Below, piece after piece: positions 22,252 to 48,644 of a DNA stretch of 64,000 nt (the stretch's first letter is position 1; each line of letters opens with the position of its first letter). Location of the stretch: the NCBI GenBank assembly GCA_052388375.1, contig JBQTIG010000011.1, positions 92,080-156,079 on the forward strand, written 5' to 3'. Under the pieces are notes generated by a model. That model saw only the letters and a list, made by a program, of their open reading frames with translations, was not told where the DNA came from and did not search any database. Source of the DNA: Planctomycetaceae bacterium. GTDB lineage: Bacteria > Planctomycetota > PLA2. A program made the translations under genes and the position numbers.

Positions 22252-22262
22252 AAAGGAACACC

Positions 22263-24278
22263 ATGAGAACCCAGAAGTGCGGCGGTTGCGGATCGGTGCT
22301 CGACGTTGCGCAGCTGCAGAAGGGGTCCAAGTTCGCCTGTTCCGCCTGCGGCACGGTGCTCACCGTGGGGGAGGCGACGGCGGCGAAGCGTTCCCTCAAG
22401 GACGCGGGACCGGCCTTCAAGCCGAAGGCAGCCCAGGAGAAGGAGGCCCCCGCCACCGTGCGCCGCAGTCGTCGCGCCCCCGGGGACGCGCCCGATGCCG
22501 TGGAGGCGCAGCGCAGCCGCATGCCGCTCTTCGTGGCGGGAGGAGCGATCGTCGTGGCGGTGGTGGTCGCGATCGCGCTCGGCTCCGGCAAGGGAGGGGG
22601 CGGCGGCGGGACGATGACAGGGGGAGGGGGCGGGGGCGGCGCGGCCCGCGAGCCCGCGCCGGTGAAGGTGCCGCCGGACCAGTGGTGGCTCCAAGCGACG
22701 ACCAATCCCGACCGCTCGCCCAAGACCCTCGACGCCGCGGCGATCGAGACGATCCTCGCCGAGGCGCAGCGGAGCGGGTTCACCGCAGACCCTGGCTTCT
22801 GGAAGCCCAAGGCGGAGAAGCTCTACGGCGATCTCCTCAAGCTCAAGCCGTCCCATCGCGCGGCCAACGAGTTCTTCGGGCGTAAGTCCTTGCGGGACTA
22901 TCCCGGCTTCGCCGACGTCTGGCGCTCCATGGAGGAGAGCTTCCGCGAGCTTCCGCGCGAGCGGCGCGACCTCCTCACGGCCTACGAGGAGCGGGTGCAG
23001 CAGGGGGATCCGCTCTGGATGAGCCCCGAGGAGTACGAAGCGGAGAAGGCTCGCTTGGACGACTTCGTCGCGTGGAAGAAGCAGTGCGATGCCGACCCGA
23101 TCTTCAAGGAGATCCAGGCGGGCATCGTGCGCGTCCTCGAGACCGATCCGGTCCTCTCGCACTACGGCGCCACCTACATCGACGCCCACCCCTTCATTCT
23201 CTTCGTCGGCTCGCGCGAGCTCTTTCCCCAGCCGGTCCAGGGGGAGACCGCCGAGGAGGCGAAGGCGCGCATCGCCAAGAAGACCGAGGAGCTGCAGCCG
23301 CGCCTCCAGCGGCTGCGCATGCTCTACCGGGCCTACGTCGCGAACTTCGAGGAGCGCTACCGCAAGCCGCTGGGCCTCCCGGAGTTCAAGCCCACCGACC
23401 TGCTCTTCCAGTGGGTCTTCGAGGATCGCGAGGGGTTCGATCGCTACAACAAGGACGCCACAGGGCACGAGATCGCCGGCGGCATCCTGGGCTACTTCTC
23501 GCCGAAGAACCGCTGGGTCTTCCTCTACGAGCGCGAGGACGCGGAGGCGGAGGGGATCAGCAACGAGAACGTCATGGCCCACGAGTCCACCCACCAGATC
23601 CAGTGGTTCTTCTCCAAGGATCCCGAGAAGCGGGGCGTGAACTACAGCGAGGAGTTCGAGTCGGCCTGGTTCGGGGAGGGCTGGGCCGAGTACGTGGGCG
23701 GATCCTGCCGCACCCATCCCGAGACCGGGGAGACCCAGTTCTCCTGGTATGCCCTCGGGCGCGCGGACTGGCTCCGCTTCATGAAGAAGAACGGCATCCC
23801 GCTCATCCCCATCCGCTACCTGGCGGAGCGCGGCAACTACTCCGAGTTCAACCTGTGGATCGCGAACTTCTGGCTGGAGGAGGCGCGCAGCAAGGCCTCC
23901 GAGGCGGCCGAGAAGTTCCTCAACCAGCCGGTCTACTTCAGCTCGCTCTACGCGCAGGCCTGGTACTTCGTCTACTTCCTCAATGAGTTCGAGAACGGAA
24001 AGTACCGGAAGCCCTTCCTGGGGTTCGTCCTCACGGCCATGCGCGGCCGCCAGAAGCCGGCGGCCTACCGTAGCGATCCCGCCGTGGCGGAGCGCTGGCC
24101 CAGCGTCATCAGCGCCTTCGAGGAGATCTTCGCGATGAAGACCCCGGAGGACTGGGAGCGTCTCCAGCGGGAACATGACCAGTTCCTCGAGAAGGTCCTG
24201 CAGGATGCGCCGGTGCCCAAGAAGCGTGAGGGGGCGAAGAGCGAGGAGGGCGCGAAGAGCGACGAGGGGGGGGAGTAG
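22263..24278 (+). CDS. Zinc-ribbon/TM/DUF1570-like putative zinc metalloprotease (HExxH)
   Basis: MRTQKCGGCG..CSACG zinc ribbon, TM, poly-Gly linker, HESTHQ metal-binding motif plus downstream EGWAEY; strong RBS AAAGGAA; internal Met of ORF 20850..24278. Confidence 0.68.
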   Translation: MRTQKCGGCGSVLDVAQLQKGSKFACSACGTVLTVGEATAAKRSLKDAGPAFKPKAAQEKEAPATVRRSRRAPGDAPDAVEAQRSRMPLFVAGGAIVVAVVVAIALGSGKGGGGGGTMTGGGGGGGAAREPAPVKVPPDQWWLQATTNPDRSPKTLDAAAIETILAEAQRSGFTADPGFWKPKAEKLYGDLLKLKPSHRAANEFFGRKSLRDYPGFADVWRSMEESFRELPRERRDLLTAYEERVQQGDPLWMSPEEYEAEKARLDDFVAWKKQCDADPIFKEIQAGIVRVLETDPVLSHYGATYIDAHPFILFVGSRELFPQPVQGETAEEAKARIAKKTEELQPRLQRLRMLYRAYVANFEERYRKPLGLPEFKPTDLLFQWVFEDREGFDRYNKDATGHEIAGGILGYFSPKNRWVFLYEREDAEAEGISNENVMAHESTHQIQWFFSKDPEKRGVNYSEEFESAWFGEGWAEYVGGSCRTHPETGETQFSWYALGRADWLRFMKKNGIPLIPIRYLAERGNYSEFNLWIANFWLEEARSKASEAAEKFLNQPVYFSSLYAQAWYFVYFLNEFENGKYRKPFLGFVLTAMRGRQKPAAYRSDPAVAERWPSVISAFEEIFAMKTPEDWERLQREHDQFLEKVLQDAPVPKKREGAKSEEGAKSDEGGE

Positions 24279-26762: not shown

Positions 26763-27243
26763 TCCGACGCAGCGCCGCCGCGAACGGATCGCTGCCCCCG
26801 CGAGCCTCCAGCTCCTCCAGCGCCACGCCGCCCGCCCCGAACGTCTCGAGGAACGCCAACAGCTCCAGGGCTCCCTGGATGCCCCGGACCCGGGAACGCT
26901 GCGCCTCGGCGTGCAGGAGGGCATAGGCGCGCGCCGAGGGCAGCACCTCGCGCAGGTCGAAACGGAGGGACTTCCCCTCGGGCAGCGCGGCAAGCGCGCG
27001 GCGCAGGATGAGGACGCTGTCGGCGGCCTCCCCTCCCTCCGCCGCCACCGCCACTCCGAGGAAGGCGAGCGCCACGGGCTGCCTCGGGGCGCGGAGCACG
27101 CACTCGGAGAGCGCGGCCCGCGCGCGAGCGTAGAGCCCCACGCGGAGGTAGCCGACTCCCGCCTCGAAGTAGGCGGGGGCGTCGAAGTCCGCGGAGGCGC
27201 TGGACGCCAGGGCGAGGAGGAGGGCAGGGGTGGGCCGCCTCAT
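26680..27243 (-). CDS. Secreted TPR-like protein, last gene of the spt/bCerS operon
   Basis: 187 aa from MRRPTPALLLALASSASA signal peptide; 4-nt ATGA overlap with upstream gene; 3' end overlaps convergent gene by about 80 nt (true stop uncertain). Confidence 0.45.
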   Translation of the reverse strand: MRRPTPALLLALASSASADFDAPAYFEAGVGYLRVGLYARARAALSECVLRAPRQPVALAFLGVAVAAEGGEAADSVLILRRALAALPEGKSLRFDLREVLPSARAYALLHAEAQRSRVRGIQGALELLAFLETFGAGGVALEELEARGGSDPFAAALRRISRLPPNRPPVREEGGSSSTTPPTASR

Positions 27244-28340
27244 CCCGAACTTGGACGCTCTCGCCCCCTCCCCCCTTCCGCAAGATCCTTCTCGAAGAGC
27301 CGCCAGCGCTTGTAGGGATGGAGCCCGTAGTGCCCCAGGCCGTTGAGGAGCGCGGCGTTGTGCTCGAGCACCCAGGAGGCCTCGCACCAGTCGTACCGCT
27401 CGCGGATCCTGCCGAAGCTGTCGGCGAGGAGGAGCGCCTCGAGCCCGCGCATGCGGCGGTTCGGGACGACGCCGAGAGCCACGCAGCGCGCCCGCCGCAC
27501 CGTCTTGCGCGCCCGGAGGAAGTGGAGCCATCCCAGGGGGAACATGCGGCCTCGGCAGCGACGCGAGACCACGTTCAAGTCGGGCAGCGAGAGGAGGAAC
27601 CCGACCGCCTGGCCGTCGAGCTCCGCGACCCGCACGAGATCGGGGTCGAGGATCGCCTTCAGGTCCTTGGCCTTGAAGGCGAACTCCTCCGGCCCTACGG
27701 GGACGTGCCCCCAGTTGGAGTCCCAGGCGGCGTTGTAGACGCGGCGGATGCGCTCGACCTCGTCCAGAAACCGCCGCGCATCGATGGGCCGTACGGTGAC
27801 GTTCTTGCGCCGCGCCAATTCGGCGAACGCGCGGGTGCGGTCGAACCCCTTGTCCACGAGACGCCCGGCCACCCCGAGGAGGTCCTGGGCGCCCACGTAG
27901 CCGGCCCGCTCCCACATCGCGACCTGGTAGGCGGGGTTCCAGGTGGTATCCACGACGGGAGGCGTGTCGAAGCCTTCCACGAGAAGGCCCGCGGTGTCGT
28001 GGATGGAGTAGTTGAGAGGACCGCGCGCCAACCTGAGGCCGCGCGACGCCAGCCAGGCCTCGGCGGCGGCGAAGAGCGAGGAGGCCGTCTCCTCGTCGTC
28101 CGCGCAGTCGAAGAAGCCGAGGACGCCGCAGCCCGGCACCCGCGCCTCCAGATCGCGATCGTGGCAGGCGCCGATCCGGCCCACCGGCCGCCCTCCGCGC
28201 CGAGCCAACCACTCCGCCCCCTCCGCATGACGCCAGAAGGGGTTGCGCCGGCGGTCGAGCACGGCGTCCACCGATGCCCGGATGGGGGGGATGAAGGCGG
28301 GATGGTCGCCGTGCAGAAGTTCGGGAAGGTCGCGGAACAT
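27240..28340 (-). CDS. GNAT/FemAB-like acyltransferase, candidate bacterial ceramide synthase (bCerS)
   Basis: 366 aa from MFRDLPELLHG; Acetyltransf_6/BioF2-like C-terminal block; immediately downstream of spt as in Caulobacter-type sphingolipid loci. Confidence 0.6.
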   Translation of the reverse strand: MFRDLPELLHGDHPAFIPPIRASVDAVLDRRRNPFWRHAEGAEWLARRGGRPVGRIGACHDRDLEARVPGCGVLGFFDCADDEETASSLFAAAEAWLASRGLRLARGPLNYSIHDTAGLLVEGFDTPPVVDTTWNPAYQVAMWERAGYVGAQDLLGVAGRLVDKGFDRTRAFAELARRKNVTVRPIDARRFLDEVERIRRVYNAAWDSNWGHVPVGPEEFAFKAKDLKAILDPDLVRVAELDGQAVGFLLSLPDLNVVSRRCRGRMFPLGWLHFLRARKTVRRARCVALGVVPNRRMRGLEALLLADSFGRIRERYDWCEASWVLEHNAALLNGLGHYGLHPYKRWRLFEKDLAEGGRGRERPSSG

Positions 28341-28381
28341 CCGGCGGGCCCGCCGGCCGCCGACCCGCTCCAGGACCAGCG

Positions 28382-29563
28382 TCACTGGAGGATCTGGAGC
28401 TCGCGTCCAACGCGCGCGAACACTTCGAGGCAGCGTGTCAGCTGTTCGCGGGTGTGGGTCGCCATGTAGGAGGTGCGCAGGAGGGATTGGCCCTGCGGGA
28501 CCGCGGGCGGGACCACCGCGTTCGTGAAGACGCCCTGGTCGAAGAGCGTGCGCCATGCCATGAAGGTCGCGGCGTCGTCGCCGATGCGGAGGGGGATGAT
28601 GGCGCTTTCGCAGCCGTTGGTGTCGAAGCCGAGCTCCGCGAACCCCCTCTTCATGAACTCCACGTTGGAGCGCAACCGTTCGCGATGCTCGGGCTCGCGC
28701 TCCATGAGGTCCAGGGCGGCCAGGGCGGCCGCCGCGCTGCTCGGCGTGATGGCGGCGCTGAAGATGAGCGCCCGGGCGGTGTGCTTGACGTAGTGGATCA
28801 CATCCTCGTCGCCCACCACGAAGCCCCCCAGGCTGGCGAAGGACTTCGAGAAGGTGCCGGTGATTAGATCCACGTCGAGGCCGAAGTGTTCGCAGGTCCC
28901 GCGCCCGCCCCGGCCCAGCACGCCGACGCCGTGAGCGTCGTCCACCAGGACCTTGGCGCCGTGCTTCTTGGCCACGGCGCAGAGGCGCGGGAGGTTGACG
29001 AGGTCGCCGAGCATGGAAAAGACCCCGTCGGTCACGACCAGCTTGCCCGCCTCCGGATCGCACTGCCCCAGGAGGCGATCCAGATCGTCCATGTCGTTGT
29101 GCCGGTACTTCTTGATGGTCCCGAAGCTGAGCCGCGCGCCGTCGAAGATGGAGGCGTGGTTCTCCCGATCGCAGAAGACGAAGTCGTTCTTCCCGGCCAG
29201 GACGCTCAGGACCCCCAGATTGGTCTGGAATCCGGTGCTGAAGGTGAGGGCCGCTTCCTTGCCGAAGAAGGCCGCGAGGCGCCGTTCGAGCTCGACGTGC
29301 AGCTCCAGCGTCCCGTTCAGGAAGCGCGACCCGCTGCACCCGGTTCCGAACTCGTCGATCGCCGTTCGGGCGGCCTGCTGGACGCGGGGGTGGTGCGTCA
29401 GGCCCAGGTAGTTGTTGGACCCGATCATGACCATCCGCCGCCCCTCGATCGTCACTTCGGTGGCGTGGTGCGAGAGGGAGATGGGGTGGAAGTAGGGATA
29501 GAGATTCGCCGCCTGGATCTCCTTGGGGCGGGTGTATCGCTGGCACTTGTCGAAGAGGCTCAC
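28382..29563 (-). CDS. spt: Serine palmitoyltransferase / alpha-oxoamine synthase family PLP enzyme
   Basis: 393 aa from GTG (VSLFDKCQRY...); AOS motifs GSNNYLGL, GTFSKS (PLP lysine), conserved His; genomic context with bCerS and CerR-like genes. Confidence 0.78.
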   Translation of the reverse strand: MSLFDKCQRYTRPKEIQAANLYPYFHPISLSHHATEVTIEGRRMVMIGSNNYLGLTHHPRVQQAARTAIDEFGTGCSGSRFLNGTLELHVELERRLAAFFGKEAALTFSTGFQTNLGVLSVLAGKNDFVFCDRENHASIFDGARLSFGTIKKYRHNDMDDLDRLLGQCDPEAGKLVVTDGVFSMLGDLVNLPRLCAVAKKHGAKVLVDDAHGVGVLGRGGRGTCEHFGLDVDLITGTFSKSFASLGGFVVGDEDVIHYVKHTARALIFSAAITPSSAAAALAALDLMEREPEHRERLRSNVEFMKRGFAELGFDTNGCESAIIPLRIGDDAATFMAWRTLFDQGVFTNAVVPPAVPQGQSLLRTSYMATHTREQLTRCLEVFARVGRELQILQ

Positions 29564-29751: not shown

Positions 29752-30792
29752 ATGCAAAGCAGAAAGGTCAATCGCGTGCTCGTGACGGGGGGCCACGGCT
29801 TCCTGGGCAGCCACCTCGTCGACCTGCTCCTGCGGCGCGGCTGCGAGGTGCGCTGCCTCTTGCGGCCCGGGCGGGGTGAGGCTGGGTTCCGTGGCCTGCC
29901 GGTGGAAGTCGTGCGGGGTGATCTGCGGCGGGCCGAGGGGCTCGAAGCTGCGGTGGAGGGGGTGGAGACGGTCTACCACGTCGCCGGCCTCATCGCCGCG
30001 CGCAGACCGGCCGACTTCTATGAGGTGAACGAGGGAGGCACGCGCAGACTGGCCGCGGCTGTGGCGCGTGCGAACCCGGGCTGCCGCCGATTCGTTCTCG
30101 TCTCGAGCCAGACCGCGGGGGGCCCCAGCCGGGACGGGACGCCGGTGCGCGAAGAGGATCCTGCGCGCCCGCTCAGCCACTACGGCCGGAGCAAGCTGGC
30201 CGCCGAGCGAGCCCTCCCCGGCGCCCTGGGCGGGGTTCCCCATGCCGTCCTCCGCGCCCCTGCGATCTACGGCCCGCGGGACGAGGCGATCTTCCCCTTC
30301 TTCCAGATGGCACGCTCCGGGCTCCGCCCCGGGCTGGAGGGACGCGGGCGGCGGTTCAACCTCCTCCACGCGGAGGATGTCGCCGAGGCGATCCTCCTCG
30401 CAGGGACGCGCGGGGAGGCAAGAAACCGGCTCTACTATCTGGCCGAGGGACCTGGGTGCACCCACGGGGAGGTGGGGGAGGCGCTCTCCGCGGCGTACGG
30501 GAGACGACTGCGCAGGGTTCCCCTCCCCGACCTCCTCCTCGACCTCGCGGGCGTGCTCACCGACGAGCTGGCGGGGCTCCTGGGGCGGACGCCGGTATTC
30601 GGGCGGGACAAGGCGAAGGATCTCAAGGCGCGCTTTTGGGTCTGTTCCGCGCTGCGTGCCGGTCGCGAGCTCGGGTGGACCCCCCGGATCACGCTCCAGG
30701 AGGGCATGGCGGCCACGGCGCGCTGGTACGAGGAGCAGGGGTGGATTCGCGCGAGGCCAGGGGGGCGGGGCCCGGGGGCGGGCGCGCTATGA
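29752..30792 (+). CDS. NAD-dependent epimerase/dehydratase (extended SDR), candidate ceramide/3-ketosphinganine reductase (CerR-like)
   Basis: VLVTGGHGFLGSHLV Rossmann, YGRSK catalytic motif; divergent from spt. Confidence 0.62.
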   Translation: MQSRKVNRVLVTGGHGFLGSHLVDLLLRRGCEVRCLLRPGRGEAGFRGLPVEVVRGDLRRAEGLEAAVEGVETVYHVAGLIAARRPADFYEVNEGGTRRLAAAVARANPGCRRFVLVSSQTAGGPSRDGTPVREEDPARPLSHYGRSKLAAERALPGALGGVPHAVLRAPAIYGPRDEAIFPFFQMARSGLRPGLEGRGRRFNLLHAEDVAEAILLAGTRGEARNRLYYLAEGPGCTHGEVGEALSAAYGRRLRRVPLPDLLLDLAGVLTDELAGLLGRTPVFGRDKAKDLKARFWVCSALRAGRELGWTPRITLQEGMAATARWYEEQGWIRARPGGRGPGAGAL

Positions 30793-31214
30793 TGCGCGCT
30801 GCCATGGGACCCGGCCCCCTCCTCCTCGCGGCGCTGCTTCTCGCCGGCTGCCGCGGTGTCGAGACCTCCTATCGCTACCCCGACGACCTCTGGCACCCCA
30901 ACTACGTGAAGCGCACCAAGGCGGCGCGGGAGTTCGCGGCGCGCTCCGATGCCACCCAGCTCCCCCGCGCCTTCGATCTCCTCCTCGACCGCGAAGACCA
31001 CATCCGGGACATGGCCTACCTTACCCTCCGCACGCTGTCCGCCGGCGGAAGGGACTTCGGCTACAAGCCCTGGATGCCGGAGCCGGTGCGGGAGGGGATC
31101 GTGGCGCGCTGGCGCGCCTGGTGGGAGGCGGGGCAGCCGGGCGAGGCCGGCGCGCCGGCCGCGCCTCCCGCCGCCGACGCCCCGGCGGATGGCGGAGGGG
31201 CGGCGCGTGGCTGA
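30789..31214 (+). CDS. Small lipoprotein of unknown function
   Basis: MMRAAMGPGPLLLAALLLAGC lipobox; ATGA overlap with preceding gene. Confidence 0.5.
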   Translation: MMRAAMGPGPLLLAALLLAGCRGVETSYRYPDDLWHPNYVKRTKAAREFAARSDATQLPRAFDLLLDREDHIRDMAYLTLRTLSAGGRDFGYKPWMPEPVREGIVARWRAWWEAGQPGEAGAPAAPPAADAPADGGGAARG

Positions 31215-31650
31215 AGGCTGGCGCGGCATCCGGGTCACGATCCCCTCGGAGATCCGTTTCCTGGGCCCCATCCGGATCATGATCGACGAGGCGTGCGGCA
31301 TCGCGGGGCTCTCCGAGGAGGATCGCGCGGAGGTGCAGCTCGCGGTGCAGGAGGGCTGCGCGAACGTGATCCGCCACTGCTACAAGTGCGAGGCCGGCAA
31401 GCGGATCGATCTGCGGGTGAGCTTCCTCGAGGACTCGCTGGAGATCCGCGTGGACGACTACGGGACCTTCGTGGATCCTGCGCAGATCCGTGGCCGGGAG
31501 CTGGAAGACGTGCGGCCCGGCGGTCTCGGCGTGCACCTGATGCGCAAGTCCATGGATGAGGTCCGGTACGACAAGAACGCCTGGGGCGGGACCACGCTGA
31601 CCCTGGTGAAGCGGTTTGGCAAAGACGGCGGCGCGAAGGAGAACGAATGA
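31189..31650 (+). CDS. Anti-sigma regulatory factor, GHKL Ser/Thr kinase (RsbW/SpoIIAB-like)
   Basis: 153 aa; N-box QEGCANVIRHC, G1 VDDYG, G2 GGLGVHLM. Confidence 0.75.
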   Translation: MAEGRRVAEGWRGIRVTIPSEIRFLGPIRIMIDEACGIAGLSEEDRAEVQLAVQEGCANVIRHCYKCEAGKRIDLRVSFLEDSLEIRVDDYGTFVDPAQIRGRELEDVRPGGLGVHLMRKSMDEVRYDKNAWGGTTLTLVKRFGKDGGAKENE

Positions 31651-31976
31651 AAGTCAATCGGGAGACCCGGAATACGGACGTGCTCGTGAGCGTGCAGGGC
31701 AGCGTGGACATTTACTCCTCGCCGGAGCTGCGCGGAGAACTGAAAGTGGCCCTCGAGCAGCGCGCGCCGAGGATCGTGATCGACCTGGAGAAGGTCACGT
31801 TCGTCGACTCGTCGGGGCTCGCAACGCTCATCGAGGCGCTCCAGCGGGTGCACGAGTACCAGGGCAAGCTGGTCCTCTGCGGCCTCAAGGCCACGGTGCT
31901 CAGCGTCTTCCAGCTGACCAACCTGGACAACCTCTTCGAAATCCGCCCCAACGTGAAGGCTGCCCTGGAAGGCTGA
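31647..31976 (+). CDS. STAS-domain anti-sigma factor antagonist (RsbV/SpoIIAA-like) with phosphorylatable DSSGL motif
   Basis: 109 aa; FVDSSGLATL; ATGA overlap with kinase gene; 6 nt upstream of mlaE. Confidence 0.8.
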   Translation: MKVNRETRNTDVLVSVQGSVDIYSSPELRGELKVALEQRAPRIVIDLEKVTFVDSSGLATLIEALQRVHEYQGKLVLCGLKATVLSVFQLTNLDNLFEIRPNVKAALEG

Positions 31977-31982
31977 TCGCGC

Positions 31983-32774
31983 GTGGCCGGCGAGTCGCTC
32001 GCGACGCTGGGCAAGAAGGGCCTCGAGCTGGCGCGCTTCCTGAGCGCCTGCGGAAGGCTCCTCTGGGACTTCGGCTACTGGTTCCTGGTCGCCCCTTTCC
32101 GCGGGTTCCGGCTCCGAGGCGCGGAAACCGCCCGCCAGATGGTGCGCGTCGGCGTCCACTCCGTGCCGATCGTCTTCCTGGTCAATTTCTTCGTCGGCGT
32201 CACGCTCGCCATCACCGTCGCCGACATCCTCGACGAGTTCGGCGTGACCGAGTACACCAGCGCGGCGATGGGCGTGGGGTTCTGGCGCGAGCTGGCGCCG
32301 CTCCTCACCGGGATCATCATGGCCGGCTTCGTGGGCGCCTCCCTCGCCGCCGAGATCGGGACGATGAAGGTGGGCGAGGAGCTCATGGCGCTGGAGGGGA
32401 TGGCGCTCAACCCGGTCCGCGTGCTCGGCGTCCCGCGCCTGGTCGCGGTGCTCGTCATGGTCCCCATGGTCACGCTCCTCGGCACCCTCTTCGGCATCTA
32501 CGGCGGCTTCGTCGTCTGCACCGGCCTCCTGGATCTGACGCCGACGCTCTTCTACGACCGCATGATCGATGCGCTCACGTTCAAGGACATCTGGGTCGGA
32601 GGCTTGAAGAGCGTCCTCTTCGGCTGCATCGTGGGCCTCGTCGGGCTGGCGCAGGGGTTCCAGGTGCGCGGCGGCGCCGAGGGCGTGGGCCGCGCCACCA
32701 CGAACGCCGTGGTCTACTCCATCATTCTCATCATCCTGGGCGACTGCCTGCTCACGGTGGCGTTCTACTTCTGA
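31983..32774 (+). CDS. mlaE: MlaE-family ABC transporter permease
   Basis: 263 aa, MlaE/Ttg2B conserved TM core. Confidence 0.85.
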   Translation: MAGESLATLGKKGLELARFLSACGRLLWDFGYWFLVAPFRGFRLRGAETARQMVRVGVHSVPIVFLVNFFVGVTLAITVADILDEFGVTEYTSAAMGVGFWRELAPLLTGIIMAGFVGASLAAEIGTMKVGEELMALEGMALNPVRVLGVPRLVAVLVMVPMVTLLGTLFGIYGGFVVCTGLLDLTPTLFYDRMIDALTFKDIWVGGLKSVLFGCIVGLVGLAQGFQVRGGAEGVGRATTNAVVYSIILIILGDCLLTVAFYF

Positions 32775-32778
32775 ACCC

Positions 32779-33615
32779 ATGACCGAACCTCGCGCTTCCG
32801 AACCCTCCCCCGGCGATGAACCGCCGGTCGTCATCCGCTGCCGCGACGTGGAGAAGAGCTACGACGGACGCCCCATCCTGCAGGGGATCAACCTGGAGGT
32901 GCGCAAGGGGGAGACCCTCGTGATCATGGGGGGATCGGGCCATGGCAAGAGCACGCTCCTCCGGCTCCTCATCGCCGCGGAGCGGACGGACGGGGGACGG
33001 ATCGAGCTGTTCGGCCAGGACATCAGCAACCTGAGCGAGGAGGAGATGTACCCGCTCAAGCGCCGGTACGGGATCTTGTTCCAGTCCGGGGCGCTCTTCG
33101 GCTCCATGACGGTGGGCGAGAACATCTCCCTGCCCATCCGCGAGCACACCAAGCTCGACGAGAAGATCATCCGCATCATCGTCAAGCTGAAACTCGACAT
33201 GGTCGGCCTGCGGGACTTCGAACACCTCAACCCCTCCCAGCTCTCCGGCGGCATGCGCAAGCGCGTGGGGTTGGCGCGCGCCATCGCCCTCGATCCCGAG
33301 GTGATCTTCTACGACGAGCCCGGGGCGGGCCTCGATCCGGTCATGCTCGCGGTCATCGACGAATTGATCACGGGCCTCGGGAAGAAGCTGGGCGTCGCGT
33401 CGATCGTCGTGACGCACGAGATGAACTCCGCCTTCCGGATCGCGGACCGGATGGTGCTCCTCTACCGCGGAAAGCTGATCGCGGAGGGGACCCCGGACGA
33501 GATCCGGAATTCCCCCGATCCGATCGTGCAGCAATTCATCCAGGGCAAGGCCGAAGGGCCGATCCCCCTGCGTCTGGCGAGCCGGGATCTCGCCGAGGAT
33601 CTCTTGGGAGGCTGA
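32779..33615 (+). CDS. mlaF: MlaF-family ABC transporter ATP-binding protein
   Basis: Walker A GGSGHGKST, signature LSGGMRKR, Walker B IFYDEPGAGLD. Confidence 0.9.
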   Translation: MTEPRASEPSPGDEPPVVIRCRDVEKSYDGRPILQGINLEVRKGETLVIMGGSGHGKSTLLRLLIAAERTDGGRIELFGQDISNLSEEEMYPLKRRYGILFQSGALFGSMTVGENISLPIREHTKLDEKIIRIIVKLKLDMVGLRDFEHLNPSQLSGGMRKRVGLARAIALDPEVIFYDEPGAGLDPVMLAVIDELITGLGKKLGVASIVVTHEMNSAFRIADRMVLLYRGKLIAEGTPDEIRNSPDPIVQQFIQGKAEGPIPLRLASRDLAEDLLGG

Positions 33616-33618
33616 CCG

Positions 33619-34866
33619 ATGGCAAGCAAGGCAATGGAAGTGCGTGCGGGGATCGTGGTCCTCCTGGGCCTGGGCATCCTGGGACTCGGGCTCTTCCTCG
33701 TGAGCGGCGGCACCGACCAGCTGCGCGACAAGGGCTACTACACGATCCTCTTCGAGGACGCGGGGGGGATCGGCGGGGGGGACGCGGTCTATCTCGCGGG
33801 CCAGCGGATCGGGAGCGTCGAGCGCGTCGAGGCGCGCAAGGTGGGGGACACGAGCAAGGTGGCCGTTACGATCAAGGTCTACGCCACCGCCGAGATCCAC
33901 CAGAACGCGACGTTCCGCATCTCCCAGACCATCACCGGGATCACGACGATGCGCATTCTCTACGGCAGCGGGGCCCTGGCCGACGCGGAGACCCTGTTGT
34001 CGGGCACGAAGCTGGCCACCTTCGAGGAAGCGATCGACGGCGCGACGCTGCTGATCAACGACGCGCGGGCGATGGTGGGGGACCTCCAGCGCGCCGCCAA
34101 GGGCATCGACTCCATGGTGGCCGACCTCCAGGAGCGGAAGCTGCCCGAGAAGGTGGAGGCGATCGTCAAGGAGGTCGCGGGCGCCATCGAGGACGCTCGA
34201 CGCATCGTGCGCAACGCCGAAGCGCCCGTGGACGAGGTCCTCGCCCGGCTCCGCTCCGCGGCGCGGGCGCTCGACGAGACGATCGTGCAGATCAAGGCCG
34301 ACTACGGCGAGAAGATGGAGCCGCGCGTCACGGCCGCCCTGGAGAGCCTGCGGAAGGCGGCAGCGGACGTGGAGGGACTGCTCTCCACCAACCGGCCGCG
34401 CATCGACGCCCTGGTGCAGAACCTCAAGGACGCCAGTGAGCGCGTCTCGCCGGTGCTCCAGCGCATCGAGGGGCTGGCGCGCGGCGCGGACGAGACCGTC
34501 ATCGAGGTGCGCCCGCGGCTCGTCGCCACCCTCGAAAACGCCAAGCGGGCGATGAAGAACTTCGAAGCGGTGACCCAGGACCTCAAAACCGCGCCCTGGA
34601 AGCTCGTGAACAAGCCGACCGACGAGGAGGCGCGGGAGGTCCACCTCTACAACGCCGCGAGCCTCTATACGGCGGCGGTGGGCGACGTCGCGGCCGGTAT
34701 CGAGGAATTGGGTACGTTGAAGGACCTCGGGCTGCTCGCCTCGCCGGAGGGAGCCGCGCGCGTGGTGGAGGCGCTGGCCAGGCTCAACCGGGCGATCGAG
34801 GAGCACGATCGGCTGCAGCAAGCGCTGGTCGATCTGATCGTCGCGGGGGCGAAGGCGAAAAACTAG
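33619..34866 (+). CDS. mlaD: MlaD/MCE domain protein with long C-terminal helical extension
   Basis: N-terminal TM plus MCE domain; 415 aa. Confidence 0.8.
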   Translation: MASKAMEVRAGIVVLLGLGILGLGLFLVSGGTDQLRDKGYYTILFEDAGGIGGGDAVYLAGQRIGSVERVEARKVGDTSKVAVTIKVYATAEIHQNATFRISQTITGITTMRILYGSGALADAETLLSGTKLATFEEAIDGATLLINDARAMVGDLQRAAKGIDSMVADLQERKLPEKVEAIVKEVAGAIEDARRIVRNAEAPVDEVLARLRSAARALDETIVQIKADYGEKMEPRVTAALESLRKAAADVEGLLSTNRPRIDALVQNLKDASERVSPVLQRIEGLARGADETVIEVRPRLVATLENAKRAMKNFEAVTQDLKTAPWKLVNKPTDEEAREVHLYNAASLYTAAVGDVAAGIEELGTLKDLGLLASPEGAARVVEALARLNRAIEEHDRLQQALVDLIVAGAKAKN

Positions 34867-34888: not shown

Positions 34889-35818
34889 ATGGCCAAAGTG
34901 AGCGTGATCGGCGCGGGGCACGTCGGCGAGTCGGTGGGATTCCAGATCGCGGAGCGCAGCCTCGCGGAAGTCGTCCTCGTGGATGTCGTGGAGGGCATGC
35001 CCCAGGGCAAGGCGCTCGACATGGCGCAGGCGGGAGCGCTCTTCGACTACGACCTGCCGCTCCAGGGGTCCAACGACTTCGCGTCGATCCGCGGCAGCGA
35101 TGTCGTCGTCGTGACCTCCGGCATCGCCCGCAAGCCCGGCATGGACCGCATGGACCTGCTCAAGACCAACGCGGGCATCGTGAAGGATGTCTCGGCGGCG
35201 ATCCGGAAGCACGCGCCCGACTCCATCGTGATCATGGTGACGAACCCCCTCGACGTGATGGCCTTCGTCGCGTTCCGCGTGACCGGCTTTCCGCGCGAGC
35301 GGGTGGTGGGCATGGCCGGCGTCCTGGACGCGGCGCGCTACCGCCGCTTCGTCGCCTGGGAACTGAAGGTCTCCGTGCGCGACGTGGCCGCCATGGTGCT
35401 GGGGGGCCACGGCGACCAGATGGTGCCCCTCCCGCGCTTCACCACGGTCAACGGCGTTCCGCTGCCGGAGCTGCTCCCGGCCGCCCGCATCGCCGCGCTC
35501 GTGGAGCGGACGCGCCACGGCGGCGCGGAGATCGTGAAGCTGCTCAAGACGGGCAGCGCCTACTACGCGCCGGCCGCCTCCTGCACCGTGATGGTCGAGG
35601 CGATCCTGCGCGACTCGAACCACCTCCTCCCGGCGGCCGCGTTCCTCGAGGGGGAGTACGGGCATCGGGGGATCCACCTCGGCGTGCCCGTGCGGATGGG
35701 TCGCCGCGGCGTGAGCCAGATCGTGGAGGTCCCGCTCGACGGGGCGGAACGAAAGGCGCTCGATGCGAGCGCCGAGGCGGTCCGCAAGGGCGTGGCCGAA
35801 GTGCAGCCCTTCCTCTAG
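34889..35818 (+). CDS. mdh: Malate dehydrogenase (LDH-like type)
   Basis: VSVIGAGHVG Rossmann, catalytic His, MVTNPLD; 309 aa. Confidence 0.9.
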   Translation: MAKVSVIGAGHVGESVGFQIAERSLAEVVLVDVVEGMPQGKALDMAQAGALFDYDLPLQGSNDFASIRGSDVVVVTSGIARKPGMDRMDLLKTNAGIVKDVSAAIRKHAPDSIVIMVTNPLDVMAFVAFRVTGFPRERVVGMAGVLDAARYRRFVAWELKVSVRDVAAMVLGGHGDQMVPLPRFTTVNGVPLPELLPAARIAALVERTRHGGAEIVKLLKTGSAYYAPAASCTVMVEAILRDSNHLLPAAAFLEGEYGHRGIHLGVPVRMGRRGVSQIVEVPLDGAERKALDASAEAVRKGVAEVQPFL

Positions 35819-38876: not shown

Positions 38877-40262
38877 TCACTCGCGCGCGGCGAGGCGGCG
38901 CTTCCAAGCGGCGAGTTCGCGACGCACGAGGGCCGGGGCGGTGCCGCCCCGCGCGCGCTTCGAGCGCAGGGCGGCGGCAAGGGTGAGGTGCCGCGCGACA
39001 TCGGGGCCGAACTCCCGAGCCGCCGCGCGCAGGCGCGCCTGGGGGAGAGCGGTCACGTCGATGCCCGCCTCCTCCGCCTCCCGCACCAGTCCCCCCACCA
39101 CCGCATGGGCGCGACGAAACGGGAGCCCCTTGCGCACGAGGTAGTCGGCCAACTCCACCGCGAGCAGGTGGCCTCCCTGGAGCGCCCGCGCGCACGCCTC
39201 GGGCGCGACCCGGCAGTCCCCCAGGGTCGCCGCCAGCCCACCCGCCACCGCCTCGACGGTGTCGGCGGCGTCGAAACAGGCCTCCTTGTCCTCCTGGAGG
39301 TCCTTGTTGTAGGCCAGCGGCAGCCCCTTGAGCGTCGTGGCCAGGGCGACGAACCGGCCCAGGAGCCGCCCCGCCTTTCCGCGCGCCAGCTCCGCCGCGT
39401 CGGGATTGCGCTTTTGGGGAAGCAGACTCGAGCCGGTGGAGGCCCTGTCCCCCAGCTTCAGGAAGCCGAATTCGCTCGAGGTCCAGGCGACCAACTCGGC
39501 GCCGAGGCGCGAGAACGTGAGGCCGAGGAGGGAGGCCGCGGCGAGATACTCCAGGGCGGCATCGCGCGAGCCCACGGCGTCGAGGCTGTTGGCGGAGATC
39601 CGGCGGAAGCCGAGACTCTTCGCCAACGCCCGGCGGTCCACCGGGACGCCGCTGCCCGCCGCGGCGCCCGAACCGAGGGGAAGCAGGTCGGCCCGGGTGC
39701 GGGCGCCGAGGAGCCGCGCGCGGTCGCGCTCGAGCATCTCCGCGTAGGCGAGCAGGTGGTGGGCGAAGAGGACCGGCTGGGCGCGCTGCCCATGGGTGTA
39801 GGCGGGAATCGCCGCCGCCCCGGCCCGCTCCGCGAGTTCCACGATAGCGCGGGCCACCGCCGTCGCCGCCGCGCAAGCCGCGTCGCAGGCCTTCTTGAGC
39901 CAGAGATGCAGGTCGCAAGCGACCTGGTCGTTGCGGCTGCGCCCGGTGTGCAGCTTCCCCCCCGCGGGCCCCGCCAGCTCCAGCAGTCTCCGCTCCACCG
40001 CGGTGTGGATGTCTTCGTCGGTCTCCCGCGCCGCGAAGCGCCCCTGGGCGAACTCCCGCCGGATCCGTTCCAGCCCCGACGTGATGCGGGTGAGCTCGGC
40101 GGCGGTGAGCAGGCCGGCGCGGCGCAGCGCCCGCGCCCAGGCGACCGAGCCGTCGATCTCCTCGCCGACCAGGCGGCGGTCGAAGGCGAACGAGCGGTTG
40201 AGCCGGTCGATCCGCACGTCCAGCTTTCCCGTGAAGCGTCCGCCCCACATCCGCCCGCTCAT
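38877..40262 (-). CDS. argH: Argininosuccinate lyase
   Basis: 461 aa from MSGRMWGGRF; fumarate lyase signature GSSLLPQKRNPD. Confidence 0.9.
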   Translation of the reverse strand: MSGRMWGGRFTGKLDVRIDRLNRSFAFDRRLVGEEIDGSVAWARALRRAGLLTAAELTRITSGLERIRREFAQGRFAARETDEDIHTAVERRLLELAGPAGGKLHTGRSRNDQVACDLHLWLKKACDAACAAATAVARAIVELAERAGAAAIPAYTHGQRAQPVLFAHHLLAYAEMLERDRARLLGARTRADLLPLGSGAAAGSGVPVDRRALAKSLGFRRISANSLDAVGSRDAALEYLAAASLLGLTFSRLGAELVAWTSSEFGFLKLGDRASTGSSLLPQKRNPDAAELARGKAGRLLGRFVALATTLKGLPLAYNKDLQEDKEACFDAADTVEAVAGGLAATLGDCRVAPEACARALQGGHLLAVELADYLVRKGLPFRRAHAVVGGLVREAEEAGIDVTALPQARLRAAAREFGPDVARHLTLAAALRSKRARGGTAPALVRRELAAWKRRLAARE

Positions 40263-41290
40263 GAGAGGAACGCCTCCGCGGTGGCGCGGTAGACCTCCAC
40301 GCCGCGCTCCAGCATCGCCGTCTCGATCCACTCGTCGGCCGCGTGGCTTTGCTCGCTGCGCCCGGGCCCCAGCACGACGCCGGGGAGGTCGCGCACATGG
40401 AACAGGTCGCTCACCCCGCCGAACGCCTGGGGCGGACCCGTCCCGGCGGCGTCCAGCGCCGCGGCGACGATCGCCTCGTGCGCGGGCGTCTCCACCGGCG
40501 CCATGCGGTCGCTGATCAGCTCCGCCTCGCCGCCGAGCAGCTTCCGCAGGGCGGGAAACATCTCGCGGTGGGAGGCGCCGGGAAGGGTGCGCGCGTCCAC
40601 CTCGAAGACGCACTCCGGAGGGACGACGTTCACCTTCACCCCGCCGCGGATCACCGTGACCTGGAGCGTGGCGGGTCCGAGAAGGGGGTGGGGGGCGGGG
40701 AGGGGGAACGCCTCGAGGGCCGCGACGTCGCGGCACGCCTTGAAGAAGGCGTTCTCGCCCAGCCAGGGGCGGGCGGCGTGGGCGCGCTTCCCCTTCGCCG
40801 TGACGCGGAACCGGAGCAGGCCGCGCTGGGCGGAGCAGACCCGGAGGCCCGTCGGCTCCCCGATCACCGCCGCATGGAGCTCCGGGAGCTCGGGGCGGAG
40901 CACGCCGAGCCCCTGGCCCCCGGTCTCTTCGTCGCAGGTCGCGGCAAAGACGAGCCGCGCGCCCTTCGGCAGCCGCGCTGTCGCGAAGGCGACGGCCAAG
41001 GCGGCGAGCGGTCCCTTAGCGTCGTTGCTCCCCAGCCCGTGCACCTTCCCCTCCCGCAGCTCCGCCGCGTGGGGGTCGATGGTCCACTCCTGCGAGGCGG
41101 GCACGGTGTCGGTGTGGCTGTTGAAGAGGAGCGTGCGCGGCCCGTCGCCGCGCACGGCGTAGAGGTTGCGCCCCGAGACGCGGGGCCCGAACGCCGCCAG
41201 CTCCTCGCGCAGGAGCGCGACGCAGCCCGCCTCGCTCCCCGAGACCGAGGGGATGCGCACCAGCGCGCGGGTCAGCTCGACGACGTTCAT
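40259..41290 (-). CDS. argE: M20 family metallopeptidase, probable acetylornithine deacetylase
   Basis: 343 aa; M20 metal ligands (HTDTV, DAKG, EETGG); within arg operon; 4-nt overlaps both sides. Confidence 0.72.
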   Translation of the reverse strand: MNVVELTRALVRIPSVSGSEAGCVALLREELAAFGPRVSGRNLYAVRGDGPRTLLFNSHTDTVPASQEWTIDPHAAELREGKVHGLGSNDAKGPLAALAVAFATARLPKGARLVFAATCDEETGGQGLGVLRPELPELHAAVIGEPTGLRVCSAQRGLLRFRVTAKGKRAHAARPWLGENAFFKACRDVAALEAFPLPAPHPLLGPATLQVTVIRGGVKVNVVPPECVFEVDARTLPGASHREMFPALRKLLGGEAELISDRMAPVETPAHEAIVAAALDAAGTGPPQAFGGVSDLFHVRDLPGVVLGPGRSEQSHAADEWIETAMLERGVEVYRATAEAFLS

Positions 41291-42204
41291 TCGTCGAGGT
41301 AGCGCGCTTCCTCTTCGCGGGTCGTCACCATCGTGCCGGTTCCCTCGTGGGTGAAGAGCTCCACGAGGATGCTGTGCGGGGCCTTGCCGTCCAGGATGTG
41401 CGCGCGGCGGACCCCGGCCCGCACCGCATAGAGCACGGTCTCGATCTTGGGCACCATGCCGCCGCGGATGACCCCGGAACCGAGGAGCTCCTCGCAGCGC
41501 GCCGCGGAGAGGTGGGAGATCAGGGAGGCGGGGTCCTTGGGGTCGGCCAGAACGCCGGGCGCGCTGGTGAGGAGGATGAGCTTGTCGGCTTTCAGGTCGA
41601 CCGCTATGCGCGCCGCGACGGTGTCGGCGTTGATGTTGAAGACGCGCCCCTGGCTGTCGCCGCCGAGGGAGGAGACGACGGGCACGTAGTCCTCCTCCGC
41701 GAGCTTGCGAAGCAGGCGCGTATCGACGCGTTCGATGTCGCCGACGTGGCCGAAGTCGATGGTCCGCGTCACCCCGGTGTCGGGATCGGAGATCTCGGTG
41801 GCGGGGCGCCGCACCGCGCTCACGATGCCCCCATCCACGCCGCTCAGGCCGACCGATTGCAGGCCGTGGCGCCGGAGCGCGCTCAGAATGTCGATGTTGA
41901 TCTGCCCGGCGAACACCATCTTGGCCACCTCCAGGGTGGCGTCGTCGGTGACCCGCCGTCCCTGGACGATTTCCGGCTCCACCCCGAGCTTGCGGGAGAG
42001 TTCGGTCGCCTGGGGCCCCCCCCCGTGGACAAGCACCATGCGCACGCCGATGGCGTGGCAGAGCGAGAGGTCGCCGGCGAGGAGATCGAGGGCCGCGCGG
42101 TCGCGGGCGATCTCCCCGCCGCACTTCACGACGAAGAAGGCGCCCCGGTGGCGCCGCATGTAGGGCAAGGCTTCGAGCAAGGTGGAGACGTTGGTTCCGT
42201 TCAT
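41287..42204 (-). CDS. argB: Acetylglutamate kinase
   Basis: 305 aa; VVKCGG, VHGGGPQ amino-acid kinase motifs. Confidence 0.9.
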   Translation of the reverse strand: MNGTNVSTLLEALPYMRRHRGAFFVVKCGGEIARDRAALDLLAGDLSLCHAIGVRMVLVHGGGPQATELSRKLGVEPEIVQGRRVTDDATLEVAKMVFAGQINIDILSALRRHGLQSVGLSGVDGGIVSAVRRPATEISDPDTGVTRTIDFGHVGDIERVDTRLLRKLAEEDYVPVVSSLGGDSQGRVFNINADTVAARIAVDLKADKLILLTSAPGVLADPKDPASLISHLSAARCEELLGSGVIRGGMVPKIETVLYAVRAGVRRAHILDGKAPHSILVELFTHEGTGTMVTTREEEARYLDE

Positions 42205-43208
42205 GCGTCCTTCAGGAGTTCGTGCAGGGCGGCCGCCTGGACCAGCACCCGGGAACGGGACTGCTCGGCGACCCAGGAATGGGGCCCGTCGATGACCTCG
42301 TCCGCCACGACCACGTTGCGGCGCACCGGCAGGCAGTGCATGAAGGCGCCCGGATCGCCGAGCGCCTGCCGCCGCCGATCCACGATCCAGCTCCGGAGGG
42401 GGGCGCGCAGCGCCGCGTCCCCCTCGGGATTCGCATAGGCGGAGAGCGCGCCCCACGCCTTGGCGTAGACGACCCGCGCGCCGGAGAGCCCCTCGTCCAT
42501 GTCGCCATGGAGCGTGAGGCGGCCGCCCGCGGACTCCCGCGCGTGCTCCATCACCTCCGCGTCCAACTCGAATCCGGGAGGATGCACGAGGCGGACGCGG
42601 TAGCCCGCGCGGCAGAAAGCGAGAAGCGCCGAATTGGGCACCGCGGTCGGAAGCGCCCGCGGATGCCAGGCCCAGGTGATCGCGATGGCATGCTCCGCGG
42701 GATCCCCTTCCAGGTGGTTGCGCAGCACGAGCAGGTCGGCGAGGGACTGCATCGGGTGAAACAGCACCGACTCGAGGTTGATCACCGGGACCTCCGAGCA
42801 GCGCGCGACGGCTTGGAGCACCGGATCCTGGCGCTGCTCCTCCCAGGGGCGCGCAAGGTCGGCGAAGCAGCGCACGCCGATGCAGTCCACCACGCCGCTC
42901 AGGAACTTCCCCACGGCGTCGCGCACATGCTCGGCCTTGTCGCCGTCCATGACCGCCCCGTCCCGCGTCTCCAGCGCCCAGACGCTCCTCCCGACGTCGT
43001 GGCAGCTGCAGAGCGCGCCCAGGGAGTAGCAGGCGACCTCCAGGGCGGTGCGCGTGCGCAGGGAGGGGTTGAAGAAGAGACCGCAGACCACCCGACCGAC
43101 GAGCGCGGGCGGGATCTCCGACTCGCGGAAACGGTCGGCAAGATCGAGGAGCGTGGTGACCTCCCCGTCCGACAGGTCCTCGAGGCTCAGGATCGAGCGG
43201 CCCCTCAC
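42201..43208 (-). CDS. argF: Ornithine (or N-acyl-ornithine) carbamoyltransferase
   Basis: SLRTR carbamoyl-phosphate motif, HCLP motif; GTG start giving 4-nt overlap with argD. Confidence 0.78.
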   Translation of the reverse strand: MRGRSILSLEDLSDGEVTTLLDLADRFRESEIPPALVGRVVCGLFFNPSLRTRTALEVACYSLGALCSCHDVGRSVWALETRDGAVMDGDKAEHVRDAVGKFLSGVVDCIGVRCFADLARPWEEQRQDPVLQAVARCSEVPVINLESVLFHPMQSLADLLVLRNHLEGDPAEHAIAITWAWHPRALPTAVPNSALLAFCRAGYRVRLVHPPGFELDAEVMEHARESAGGRLTLHGDMDEGLSGARVVYAKAWGALSAYANPEGDAALRAPLRSWIVDRRRQALGDPGAFMHCLPVRRNVVVADEVIDGPHSWVAEQSRSRVLVQAAALHELLKDA

Positions 43209-47888: not shown

Positions 47889-48644
47889 GTGATCGTCGCC
47901 GAGGGACTCACCAAGGTCTTCCACGACCCCAAGCGCGGCGGGGAGTTCCGTGCCGTGGACGGCGTGAGCTTCCGCTGCGAGCCGGGGCGCATCTTCGGGC
48001 TCCTGGGCCCCAACGGAGCCGGCAAGACGACCACGCTGCGCATTCTCTCCACGACGCTGCAGCCCACGGCGGGCCGCGCCGTCGTGGCCGGCCACGACGT
48101 CGTGCGCGAGCCTTCGGAGGCGCGGCGCAAGCTCGGGTTCTGCACCGGCACCACCGGCGTCTACGAGCGGCTGACCCCGCGCGAGATGACCGGCTACTTC
48201 GGCCGCCTCTACGGCATGGCGGAGGAGGCGGTCGAGGCGCGCACGGAGGAGCTCTTCGATCTCCTGGACATGCGCTCCTTCGGCGACACGCCCTGCGGCC
48301 GGCTCTCCGCCGGCATGCGCCAGAAGGTCTCGCTGGCGCGCACCATCGTCCACGATCCCCCGGTGCTCATCTTCGACGAGCCGACCACGAGCCTCGACGT
48401 TCTCGTGGCGCGCACGGTCACGGAGTTCATCGGCTCCTGCAAGGCGCGCGGGAGAACCGTCATCCTCTCCACGCACATCATGGCGGAGGCGGAGAAGCTC
48501 TGCGACGACCTCGCGATCCTCTATCGAGGCAGGATCCTGGAGCAGGGGACCGTAGGCGTGATGAAGGCGCGCGCCGGGCGCGACACCATCGAGGATCTTT
48601 TCTTCACCCTGGTGGATCGATGCGACGCAGCACCCTCGGCCTGA
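47889..48644 (+). CDS. ABC transporter ATP-binding protein (NatA-like)
   Basis: GLLGPNGAGKTT, LSAGMRQKV, LIFDEPTTSLD; GTG start (or TTG 6 nt upstream). Confidence 0.8.
   Translation: MIVAEGLTKVFHDPKRGGEFRAVDGVSFRCEPGRIFGLLGPNGAGKTTTLRILSTTLQPTAGRAVVAGHDVVREPSEARRKLGFCTGTTGVYERLTPREMTGYFGRLYGMAEEAVEARTEELFDLLDMRSFGDTPCGRLSAGMRQKVSLARTIVHDPPVLIFDEPTTSLDVLVARTVTEFIGSCKARGRTVILSTHIMAEAEKLCDDLAILYRGRILEQGTVGVMKARAGRDTIEDLFFTLVDRCDAAPSA

Follow-up and report, generated by a model that had tools for sequence, protein, structure and literature searches.

A GHKL serine kinase and an RsbV-like STAS protein encoded within a planctomycete MlaEFD operon suggest a partner switch acting on a lipid transporter

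In a Planctomycetaceae bacterium, a serine kinase of the RsbW/SpoIIAB type and a single-domain STAS protein are encoded in one run of genes with MlaE, MlaF and MlaD, the subunits of an MCE-type lipid transporter. The run lies in a stretch of 64,000 nt (contig JBQTIG010000011.1, assembly GCA_052388375.1; G+C content ~70%), here called the window, and all coordinates are positions within it. Judged from sequence comparison, the STAS protein might act on MlaF as an equivalent of the E. coli subunit MlaB, its action gated by kinase phosphorylation of residue Ser55; we consider the case for and against this reading to be about evenly balanced. Literature searches returned no description of an MCE transporter operon that contains a GHKL serine kinase, and such a kinase in an operon of this type is new.

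The genes are tightly packed on the + strand. The kinase gene (31207..31650) is coupled to the STAS gene (31647..31976; 109 aa) by an ATGA overlap, in which the TGA stop codon of the former (31648-31650) shares nucleotides with the ATG of the latter (31647-31649). The STAS gene ends 6 nt before mlaE, which has a GTG start (31983..32774), and spacers of 4 and 3 nt separate mlaE from mlaF (32779..33615) and mlaF from mlaD (33619..34866). On the 5' side, the kinase start is overlapped for 8 nt by the 3' end of a gene for a small HEAT-like lipoprotein of 141 aa (30789..31214, +), and the same 8-nt overlap is seen in three related loci (L001, L019, L020). A preliminary description of this DNA had reported the kinase, a STAS protein with a DSSGL motif and mlaEFD, with the 6-nt gap before mlaE and the ATGA coupling to the kinase; all of these features are present in the sequence, and the coordinates confirm both junctions. 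The genes, which it had called "translationally fused", are translationally coupled and co-operonic but not fused. It had also placed the kinase start at ATG 31189. An ATG is indeed usable there, but alignment of homologues makes GTG 31207 the more likely start, because the resulting MAEGWRGIRV matches MAEAWQGIRL and MAEAWRGIRV of homologues. The lipoprotein and the sphingolipid-type genes upstream of it had been overlooked. Promoter and terminator, Rfam and tRNA scans revealed nothing of relevance to the operon.

The STAS and MlaE open reading frames (ORFs) happen to share a reading frame in the window (336 nt from 31647 to 31983), with one TGA and two codons between them. Read-through yielding a STAS-MlaE fusion was considered and ruled out, as the two ORFs are not in frame in L001, L019 and L020; the shared frame is probably coincidence.

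The arrangement is conserved among related planctomycetes. A scan with the MlaE alignment over one genome per GTDB species, using strict peptide patterns, recovered 12 loci, ten of them from Planctomycetota. The clade considered here is uncultured and comprises 13 loci, namely the window, 10 GTDB species representatives and 2 metagenome contigs. In the ten Planctomycetota loci, MlaE is 64-75% identical to the window MlaE, and the order lipoprotein-kinase-STAS-MlaE is kept in every one (10/10), followed by MlaF and MlaD where the contig reaches. The two metagenome contigs have the same order, with a kinase down to 48% identical. Spacers in the clade loci are tight or overlapping while the flanks vary: a cluster around a probable serine palmitoyltransferase gene is present in 9/13, and a malate dehydrogenase gene (mdh) is absent in L002. 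The arrangement of lipoprotein, kinase, STAS and MlaEFD is more than chance, recurring in 13/13 clade loci and in one outgroup locus with different flanks. In this outgroup (L021; MlaE 50% identical), the order is lipoprotein-kinase-STAS1-STAS2-MlaE-MlaF-MlaD within unrelated flanks, with the kinase and the two STAS genes at 4796-5995.

In the window, mdh (34889-35818) lies on the same strand 22 nt past mlaD, as in most clade loci. It may be co-transcribed with the transporter operon; a functional link is not evident.

Both regulatory proteins resemble the components of known partner switches. The kinase matches the Pfam family HATPase_c_2 (PF13581; E 4.7e-25). Among proteins of solved structure, B. 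subtilis RsbW (6M36; 5.8e-14) comes closest, and the N-box (E/N), G1 (DxG) and G2 (GGLG) motifs of the two align. The ATP-binding motifs G1 and G2 are conserved across 120 homologues, as is the Asn of the N-box. Scores against the RsbW/SpoIIAB equivalog models are below cutoff (NF003144, 67.4 bits against 145; TIGR01924, 62.1 against 155; TIGR01925, 43.3 against 135). The STAS protein matches PF01740 (E 2e-22) and scores 86.3 bits against TIGR00377, the anti-sigma factor antagonist model, above the cutoff of 53.45. Family hidden Markov models (HMMs) run against six-frame ORFs found no second copy of the kinase or the STAS protein in the window.

The putative phosphorylation site of the STAS protein lies within the motif D54-S55-S56-G57-L58. 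Among 120 homologues, F52 and residues D54-T60 are invariant and V53 is nearly so; hence Ser55 is invariant. In the AlphaFold2 (AF2) model (pLDDT 92.8), Ser55 is the first residue of a helix spanning 55-70, and Foldseek gives TM scores of 0.85-0.91 to RsbV and SpoIIAA (6M36, 1TH8, 1TID). The closest PDB match found by HMMER is TM1442 (7e-14), followed by SpoIIAA and RsbV. Alignment with SpoIIAA puts Ser55 opposite Ser58 of that protein, and a HMMER match between STAS residues 43-93 and residues 40-90 of a PDB MlaB chain puts it opposite MlaB Thr52, a register that rests on this match to the PDB chain. The window thus encodes, together with MlaE, MlaF and MlaD, a small STAS protein with a Ser at the Thr52 position. 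The DSSGL Ser stands at the N-terminus of helix alpha-2 and the kinase gene is adjacent; Ser55 is the putative phospho-acceptor.

The transporter core is assigned by family models and motifs. MlaE matches PF02405 (E 1.4e-67) and reaches 207.5 bits with TIGR00056, just under the cutoff of 212.2. The best NCBIfam model for MlaF is PRK11831 MlaF (243.7 bits; cutoff 441), and the protein has the LSGGM signature and a C-terminal extension; its alignment with MlaF of P. aeruginosa and of E. coli covers the full length. In this alignment, L271, L275 and L276 stand opposite E. coli Y261, L265 and L266, residues that dock in the groove between MlaF and MlaB. MlaD, at 415 aa an elongated form, has an MCE domain (PF02470, 34.9 bits; cutoff 25.1) and a hydrophobic N-terminus, and its C-terminal ~300 aa are mostly helical; homologues give faint matches to Helical_needle and ApoLp-III. 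The permease, the LSGGM ATPase and the MCE-domain MlaD with its predicted N-terminal transmembrane helix identify the genes, at the level of sequence, as an MlaEFD operon.

No MlaC or MlaA family (PF05494, PF04333) was found among the window genes scanned in 64 kb. The preliminary description had pointed to an mlaEFD operon lacking mlaB and mlaC; no MlaC, MlaA or MlaB-model match is indeed found, but this is not an anomaly. MlaEFD with a long MlaD and without MlaA, MlaB and MlaC is the ancestral and commonest form, 85% of MlaD homologues being long, and MlaA, MlaB and MlaC are mostly proteobacterial (PMC10665443). Because long-MlaD systems without MlaABC are common outside Proteobacteria (PMC10665443), a window without mlaC is ordinary. 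In the same survey, no MlaB is listed in the Planctomycetes rows consulted (PMC10665443).

E. coli MlaB uses its helices alpha-1 to alpha-3 to bind MlaF at the helical subdomain, with Thr52 central in the interface, and when MlaB is missing, MlaF fails to stay on MlaE (PMC7367683, PMC5016091). The phosphomimetic substitution T52E weakens MlaF binding (PMC7367683), and T52A abolishes ATPase activity with MlaF binding retained (PMC5016091, PMC7367683). Both eLife papers (Thong 2016, Kolich 2020) leave open how 'active' MlaB is controlled and propose phosphoregulation at Thr52, stating that there is no evidence for it and no known kinase (PMC5016091, PMC7367683). No kinase is known to have been tied to any Mla or MCE system. 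The preliminary description had spoken of a regulatory layer undescribed for Mla. This claim has to be narrowed, since the idea of MlaB phosphoregulation is already published; what is new is a dedicated kinase in the operon.

MlaE, MlaF and the long MlaD make up a 'bridge' system among the MCE-type lipid ABC transporters, which needs no MlaC shuttle, and we propose that the STAS protein most likely takes on the role of MlaB or of an MlaE-fused STAS domain. Unphosphorylated STAS would bind MlaF on the cytoplasmic side and hold it on the transporter, so that the ATPase would assemble and work. The kinase would phosphorylate Ser55, the counterpart of SpoIIAA Ser58 and MlaB Thr52, on the same helical face by which MlaB grips MlaF. 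Once phosphorylated, or else sequestered by the kinase, STAS would come off MlaF and transport would go down. The kinase and MlaF would compete for the same helical face of STAS, their binding being mutually exclusive, and a PP2C phosphatase encoded elsewhere would restore transport. The hydrophobic triad docking at the MlaF-MlaB groove, which the window MlaF keeps, supports this mechanism.

More distant relatives suggest which of the two regulatory proteins belongs to the transporter. In L023 (MlaE 47% identical), the order is HEAT-like lipoprotein-STAS (DSSG)-MlaE, and in the P0242 contig (MlaE 49% identical) it is SDR-HEAT-like protein-STAS-MlaE. Neither has a kinase; these contigs span 3-4 kb, and a kinase elsewhere in those genomes is possible. 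A metagenome scan with the L021 MlaE yielded one 1-kb contig. A wider HMMER search compared the window MlaE with 1.84 billion cluster representatives, of which the best 150 matches were taken (P0241-P0390; 34-50% identity, except one 166-aa fragment at 64%). Among these best 150 representatives, 64 have an N-terminal Pfam STAS_2 domain fused to MlaE (fusions are exemplified by L017:5509-6660, from a Myxococcales metagenome-assembled genome (MAG), and L022:138-1244), and 85 measure 320 aa or more. What stays constant beside MlaE is a STAS protein or domain, free or fused, along with a small lipoprotein, and the kinase is an optional addition. Since STAS stays by mlaE without the kinase and is fused to MlaE in relatives, it is most probably a subunit of the transporter, with the kinase as a regulator added to it. 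If the kinase-STAS pair were a mere passenger of the operon, a STAS kept beside MlaE where there is no kinase would be difficult to explain.

The small lipoprotein shares this constancy. It is the conserved first member of the module, always preceding the kinase or STAS gene, even in relatives whose MlaE is 47-50% identical (L021:4377-4766; L023:1955-2362). It aligns with its counterparts in L001, L002, L004 and L019 and more distantly with those in L021 and L023, and the lipobox Cys (LLLAGC in the window) is present in all of them. Family searches gave weak HEAT/HEAT_2 matches only, and no PqiC-type or other known family. As a conserved member of such a module, the HEAT-like lipoprotein is new; it may be an outer-membrane or periplasmic partner of the long MlaD.

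The resemblance of both proteins to RsbW and RsbV raises the question of a sigma factor. Pfam scans found no sigma-70 family domain among the genes scanned in 64 kb, nor in 14 related loci; several housekeeping genes (RNR, IF-2, NusA, ThiS, ArgH, ArgG, UvrB, UvrC, transaldolase) were recognised by reading and not by Pfam scan. The earlier observation that no sigma factor is adjacent therefore extends to the genes scanned across the window and to the related loci. Partner-switch modules acting on non-sigma targets are documented in CapK-CapS (PMC13373217), HenR/All4160 (bioRxiv 10.64898/2026.04.08.717354) and SypE-SypA (PMC10120452). Taken together, the lack of a sigma factor in these scans and the documented non-sigma outputs support a switch that acts on MlaF.

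Alternatively, the pair might be a conventional partner switch, in which the kinase is the anti-sigma factor for an unlinked sigma factor and STAS its antagonist, the transporter being co-transcribed as a member of the same envelope-stress regulon or for feedback. Planctomycetota are rich in partner-switch modules, sequence and fold place the two proteins with RsbW and RsbV/SpoIIAA, and the antagonist model TIGR00377 is passed above its cutoff, all of which would fit. However, neither the 64-kb scans nor the 14 related loci contain the sigma factor, and the RsbW equivalog models remain far below cutoff (67 vs 145 bits). Moreover, the canonical gene order of partner switches is STAS-kinase-sigma, whereas here it is kinase-STAS-transporter. 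STAS also adjoins mlaE in relatives lacking the kinase, and in many it forms one protein with MlaE. We regard a conventional switch as unlikely.

Several observations weigh against a phosphorylation-gated MlaB equivalent. By sequence and modelled fold, the STAS protein is SpoIIAA/RsbV-like and not an MlaB orthologue: its Foldseek TM scores to E. coli MlaB are 0.63-0.65, it scores 28 bits against the MlaB model NF033618 (cutoff 90), and PDB MlaB chains match with E 0.19-0.25. MlaB orthology was rejected on these grounds. The proposal of the preliminary description that STAS is an MlaB equivalent is therefore retained with regard to its position 5' of mlaE, the 64/150 fusions and the correspondence of Ser55 to Thr52, but not as orthology. 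An HMM of the MlaE-fused STAS domains does not favour the window STAS either, as SpoIIAA and TM1442 reach equally good scores. Neither the genes scanned in 64 kb nor the related loci yielded a PP2C phosphatase. The clade is also shallow: HU, HEAT-repeat, mdh and Kelch genes are syntenic too, and part of the adjacency is thus inherited rather than selected.

Conservation of Ser55 has to be read with similar care. With E. coli MlaB as reference, a Ser or Thr occupies the Thr52 position in 60/85 (~70%) of the extended MlaE relatives (>=320 aa). Because these have no known kinase association, the invariance of Ser55 is no proof of phosphorylation. STAS might then be a transporter subunit without phosphoregulation, its Ser being structural or catalytic like MlaB Thr52, and the kinase-like protein might be a non-catalytic partner or have another substrate. 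The Ser/Thr shared with the extended relatives and with E. coli MlaB, for which no kinase is known, would agree with this, as would the loss of ATPase activity without loss of binding in MlaB T52A. Yet the kinase keeps its N-box Asn, G1 and G2 in 120 homologues, and it is translationally coupled to a STAS protein that closely matches phosphorylated antagonists (TM1442, SpoIIAA). A subunit that is never phosphorylated seems very improbable to us.

The outgroup L021 bears on the proposed switch in another way. Its STAS1, the orthologue of the window STAS (43% identical), has DSSG and is separated from mlaE by STAS2. In STAS2, the motif is degenerate (GSAA) and the N-terminus has a hydrophobic stretch of ~45 extra aa. 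Judging from these sequences, one protein can be the STAS that is phosphorylated and another the STAS that sits on the transporter, which also counts against a single STAS in both roles. The layout of L021 suggests a three-protein switch. One such scheme inverts the proposed logic: the kinase itself would block MlaF or the transporter-bound STAS, and unphosphorylated STAS, as the true antagonist, would capture the kinase and relieve the block. This follows the logic of RsbW/SpoIIAB, MlaF or STAS2 being the stand-in for sigma, and the L021 pair of a DSSG STAS1 and a GSAA STAS2 next to mlaE fits a kinase that holds the non-phosphorylatable STAS as a pseudo-substrate. However, the window clade has no STAS2, and relatives without the kinase keep STAS by mlaE, which is hard to explain for a pure kinase antagonist. 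We consider the inverted scheme quite unlikely.

The operon can be compared with several characterised systems. Like E. coli MlaFEDB (PDB 6XGY, 6XBD), it has MlaE, an LSGGM MlaF with an extended C-terminus, an MlaD with an MCE domain, a small STAS protein encoded alongside and a Ser/Thr opening STAS helix alpha-2 (Ser55 = Thr52). In contrast to that system, the STAS is SpoIIAA/RsbV-like and encoded 5' of mlaE, the operon also includes genes for an RsbW-type kinase and a lipoprotein, MlaD has 415 aa, and neither MlaC nor MlaA is among the scanned genes; E. coli MlaB has no known kinase. E. coli mlaB itself lies at the 3' end of the mla operon. The Veillonella parvula-type MlaEFD bridge (PMC10665443) has the same MlaEFD core with a long MlaD and without MlaA, MlaB and MlaC, but neither STAS nor kinase, and MlaD of the Planctomycetes-Verrucomicrobia-Chlamydiae (PVC) group lacks the Veillonella-type C-terminal beta-barrel.

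The closest characterised architecture is that of the Brucella abortus Mpc (Mla-Pqi chimeric) system (PMC12436622). Both systems have a STAS on the N-terminal side of MlaE, MlaF, an elongated MlaD (needle-type in Mpc), a lipoprotein in the operon and no MlaC. In Mpc, STAS is fused to MlaE, a PqiC-like outer-membrane lipoprotein comes last and there is no kinase, whereas in the window STAS is a separate ORF, the HEAT-like lipoprotein comes first and the kinase lies between lipoprotein and STAS. The STAS-MlaE fusion MpcE has been described as homologous to MlaB (PMC12436622).

The window pair resembles RsbW-RsbV and SpoIIAB-SpoIIAA (6M36, 1TH8) in the fold and motifs of the kinase, in the fold and DSSGL phospho-serine motif of the STAS protein, and in that the two genes are adjacent and coupled. 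It differs in its reversed gene order, in the lipid transporter downstream and in that no sigma factor or PP2C was found nearby. In CapK-CapS, HenR/All4160 (Anabaena) and SypE-SypA (Vibrio), a GHKL kinase likewise phosphorylates a STAS protein for a non-sigma output, and some of these pairs are encoded beside the operon they control; none of them controls an ABC/MCE lipid transporter. A CapS-like transcriptional repressor was considered for the window and rejected, as CapS, which represses transcription, has a winged helix-turn-helix after its STAS domain, whereas the window protein is a bare 109-aa STAS domain.

The genes upstream of the lipoprotein point to a possible cargo. A probable serine palmitoyltransferase (Spt) gene (28382..29563, -) is divergent from the transporter operon. 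Its product scores 534.5 bits with NF047600, below the cutoff of 640, compared with ~389 for BioF and ~373 for Kbl, and its best PDB match is Sphingobacterium SPT (3A2B; 2e-131, 441 bits, vs 274 bits for Kbl). The adjoining gene (27240..28385, -) encodes a 381-aa protein without a Pfam or NCBIfam match. Its homologues are named 'GNAT superfamily N-acetyltransferase', and the best Foldseek matches of its AF2 model (pLDDT 94) are tandem-GNAT enzymes; we treat this tandem-GNAT N-acyltransferase as a candidate bacterial ceramide synthase. The + strand run opens with an NAD-dependent SDR/epimerase-family protein (29752..30792; PF01370, E 2.6e-32), a candidate ceramide reductase whose best NCBIfam match, HpnA, is far below cutoff. 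Its stop codon TGA (30790-30792) overlaps the lipoprotein ATG at 30789 in a further ATGA overlap.

Spt, the N-acyltransferase bCerS and the reductase CerR are the three-gene signature of bacterial ceramide synthesis and are often clustered, and Spt-like genes were found in 138 Planctomycetota MAGs (PMC11334938). The Spt gene and the adjoining GNAT gene cluster at this site in 9/13 clade loci and are missing from four. The SDR gene is the first of the run in 8/13 and also in the distant P0242 contig, and in most clade members the run SDR-lipoprotein-kinase-STAS-MlaEFD is translationally chained to the sphingolipid genes. Because the operon adjoins or continues a putative sphingolipid-synthesis cluster in most members, ceramide-type lipids are a plausible candidate cargo of the transporter. 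Bacterial sphingolipid transporters were listed as not yet identified in 2024 (PMC11087976), and a 2026 preprint implicates Lpt paralogues in sphingolipid transport in Caulobacter. A more far-reaching scheme would be a phospho-switched sphingolipid export, in which ceramide made by Spt, the GNAT protein and the SDR would pass to a bridge of MlaFE and the long MlaD, with the HEAT-like lipoprotein assisting in its reception and MlaF taking the place of sigma in a cytoplasmic partner switch. We offer this scheme tentatively and think it rather doubtful.

The locus is a natural system for testing the published idea that phosphorylation of a STAS subunit switches Mla transporters, as it reduces the question of MlaB phosphoregulation to four small recombinant proteins, namely the kinase, STAS, MlaF and MlaE. 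If the proposed gating is correct, it would extend partner switching from transcription to the direct control of an ABC lipid transporter and show how a post-translational switch can act on the traffic of envelope lipids. The sphingolipid-type genes nearby supply a candidate cargo for which only an Lpt-like route has been proposed so far (2026). Should the sphingolipid-export scheme hold, the operon would encode the first kinase-controlled MCE transporter and a second bacterial sphingolipid route, unrelated to the Lpt-like route of Caulobacter.

The window has some further features outside the operon. Two adjacent paralogues of 523 and 660 aa without a Pfam family lie at 20680-24278, with counterparts upstream in L004 and L019; the larger one contains the HExxH-like motif AHESTHQ. 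Another ORF without a Pfam family (45408-46436, -; 342 aa) lies between argC and argG, where genes of arginine biosynthesis form a chain with overlaps of 4 nt (38877-47623). The protein encoded at 48620-50695, beside its ATPase, joins an ABC-2 permease to a CPBP/Rce1-like protease domain, and a second, stand-alone Rce1-like protein is encoded at 15414-16172, after thiG. Finally, in a single ORF at 13158-14444, a domain of the OMP-decarboxylase/HUMPS family is joined to an RraA-like aldolase domain.

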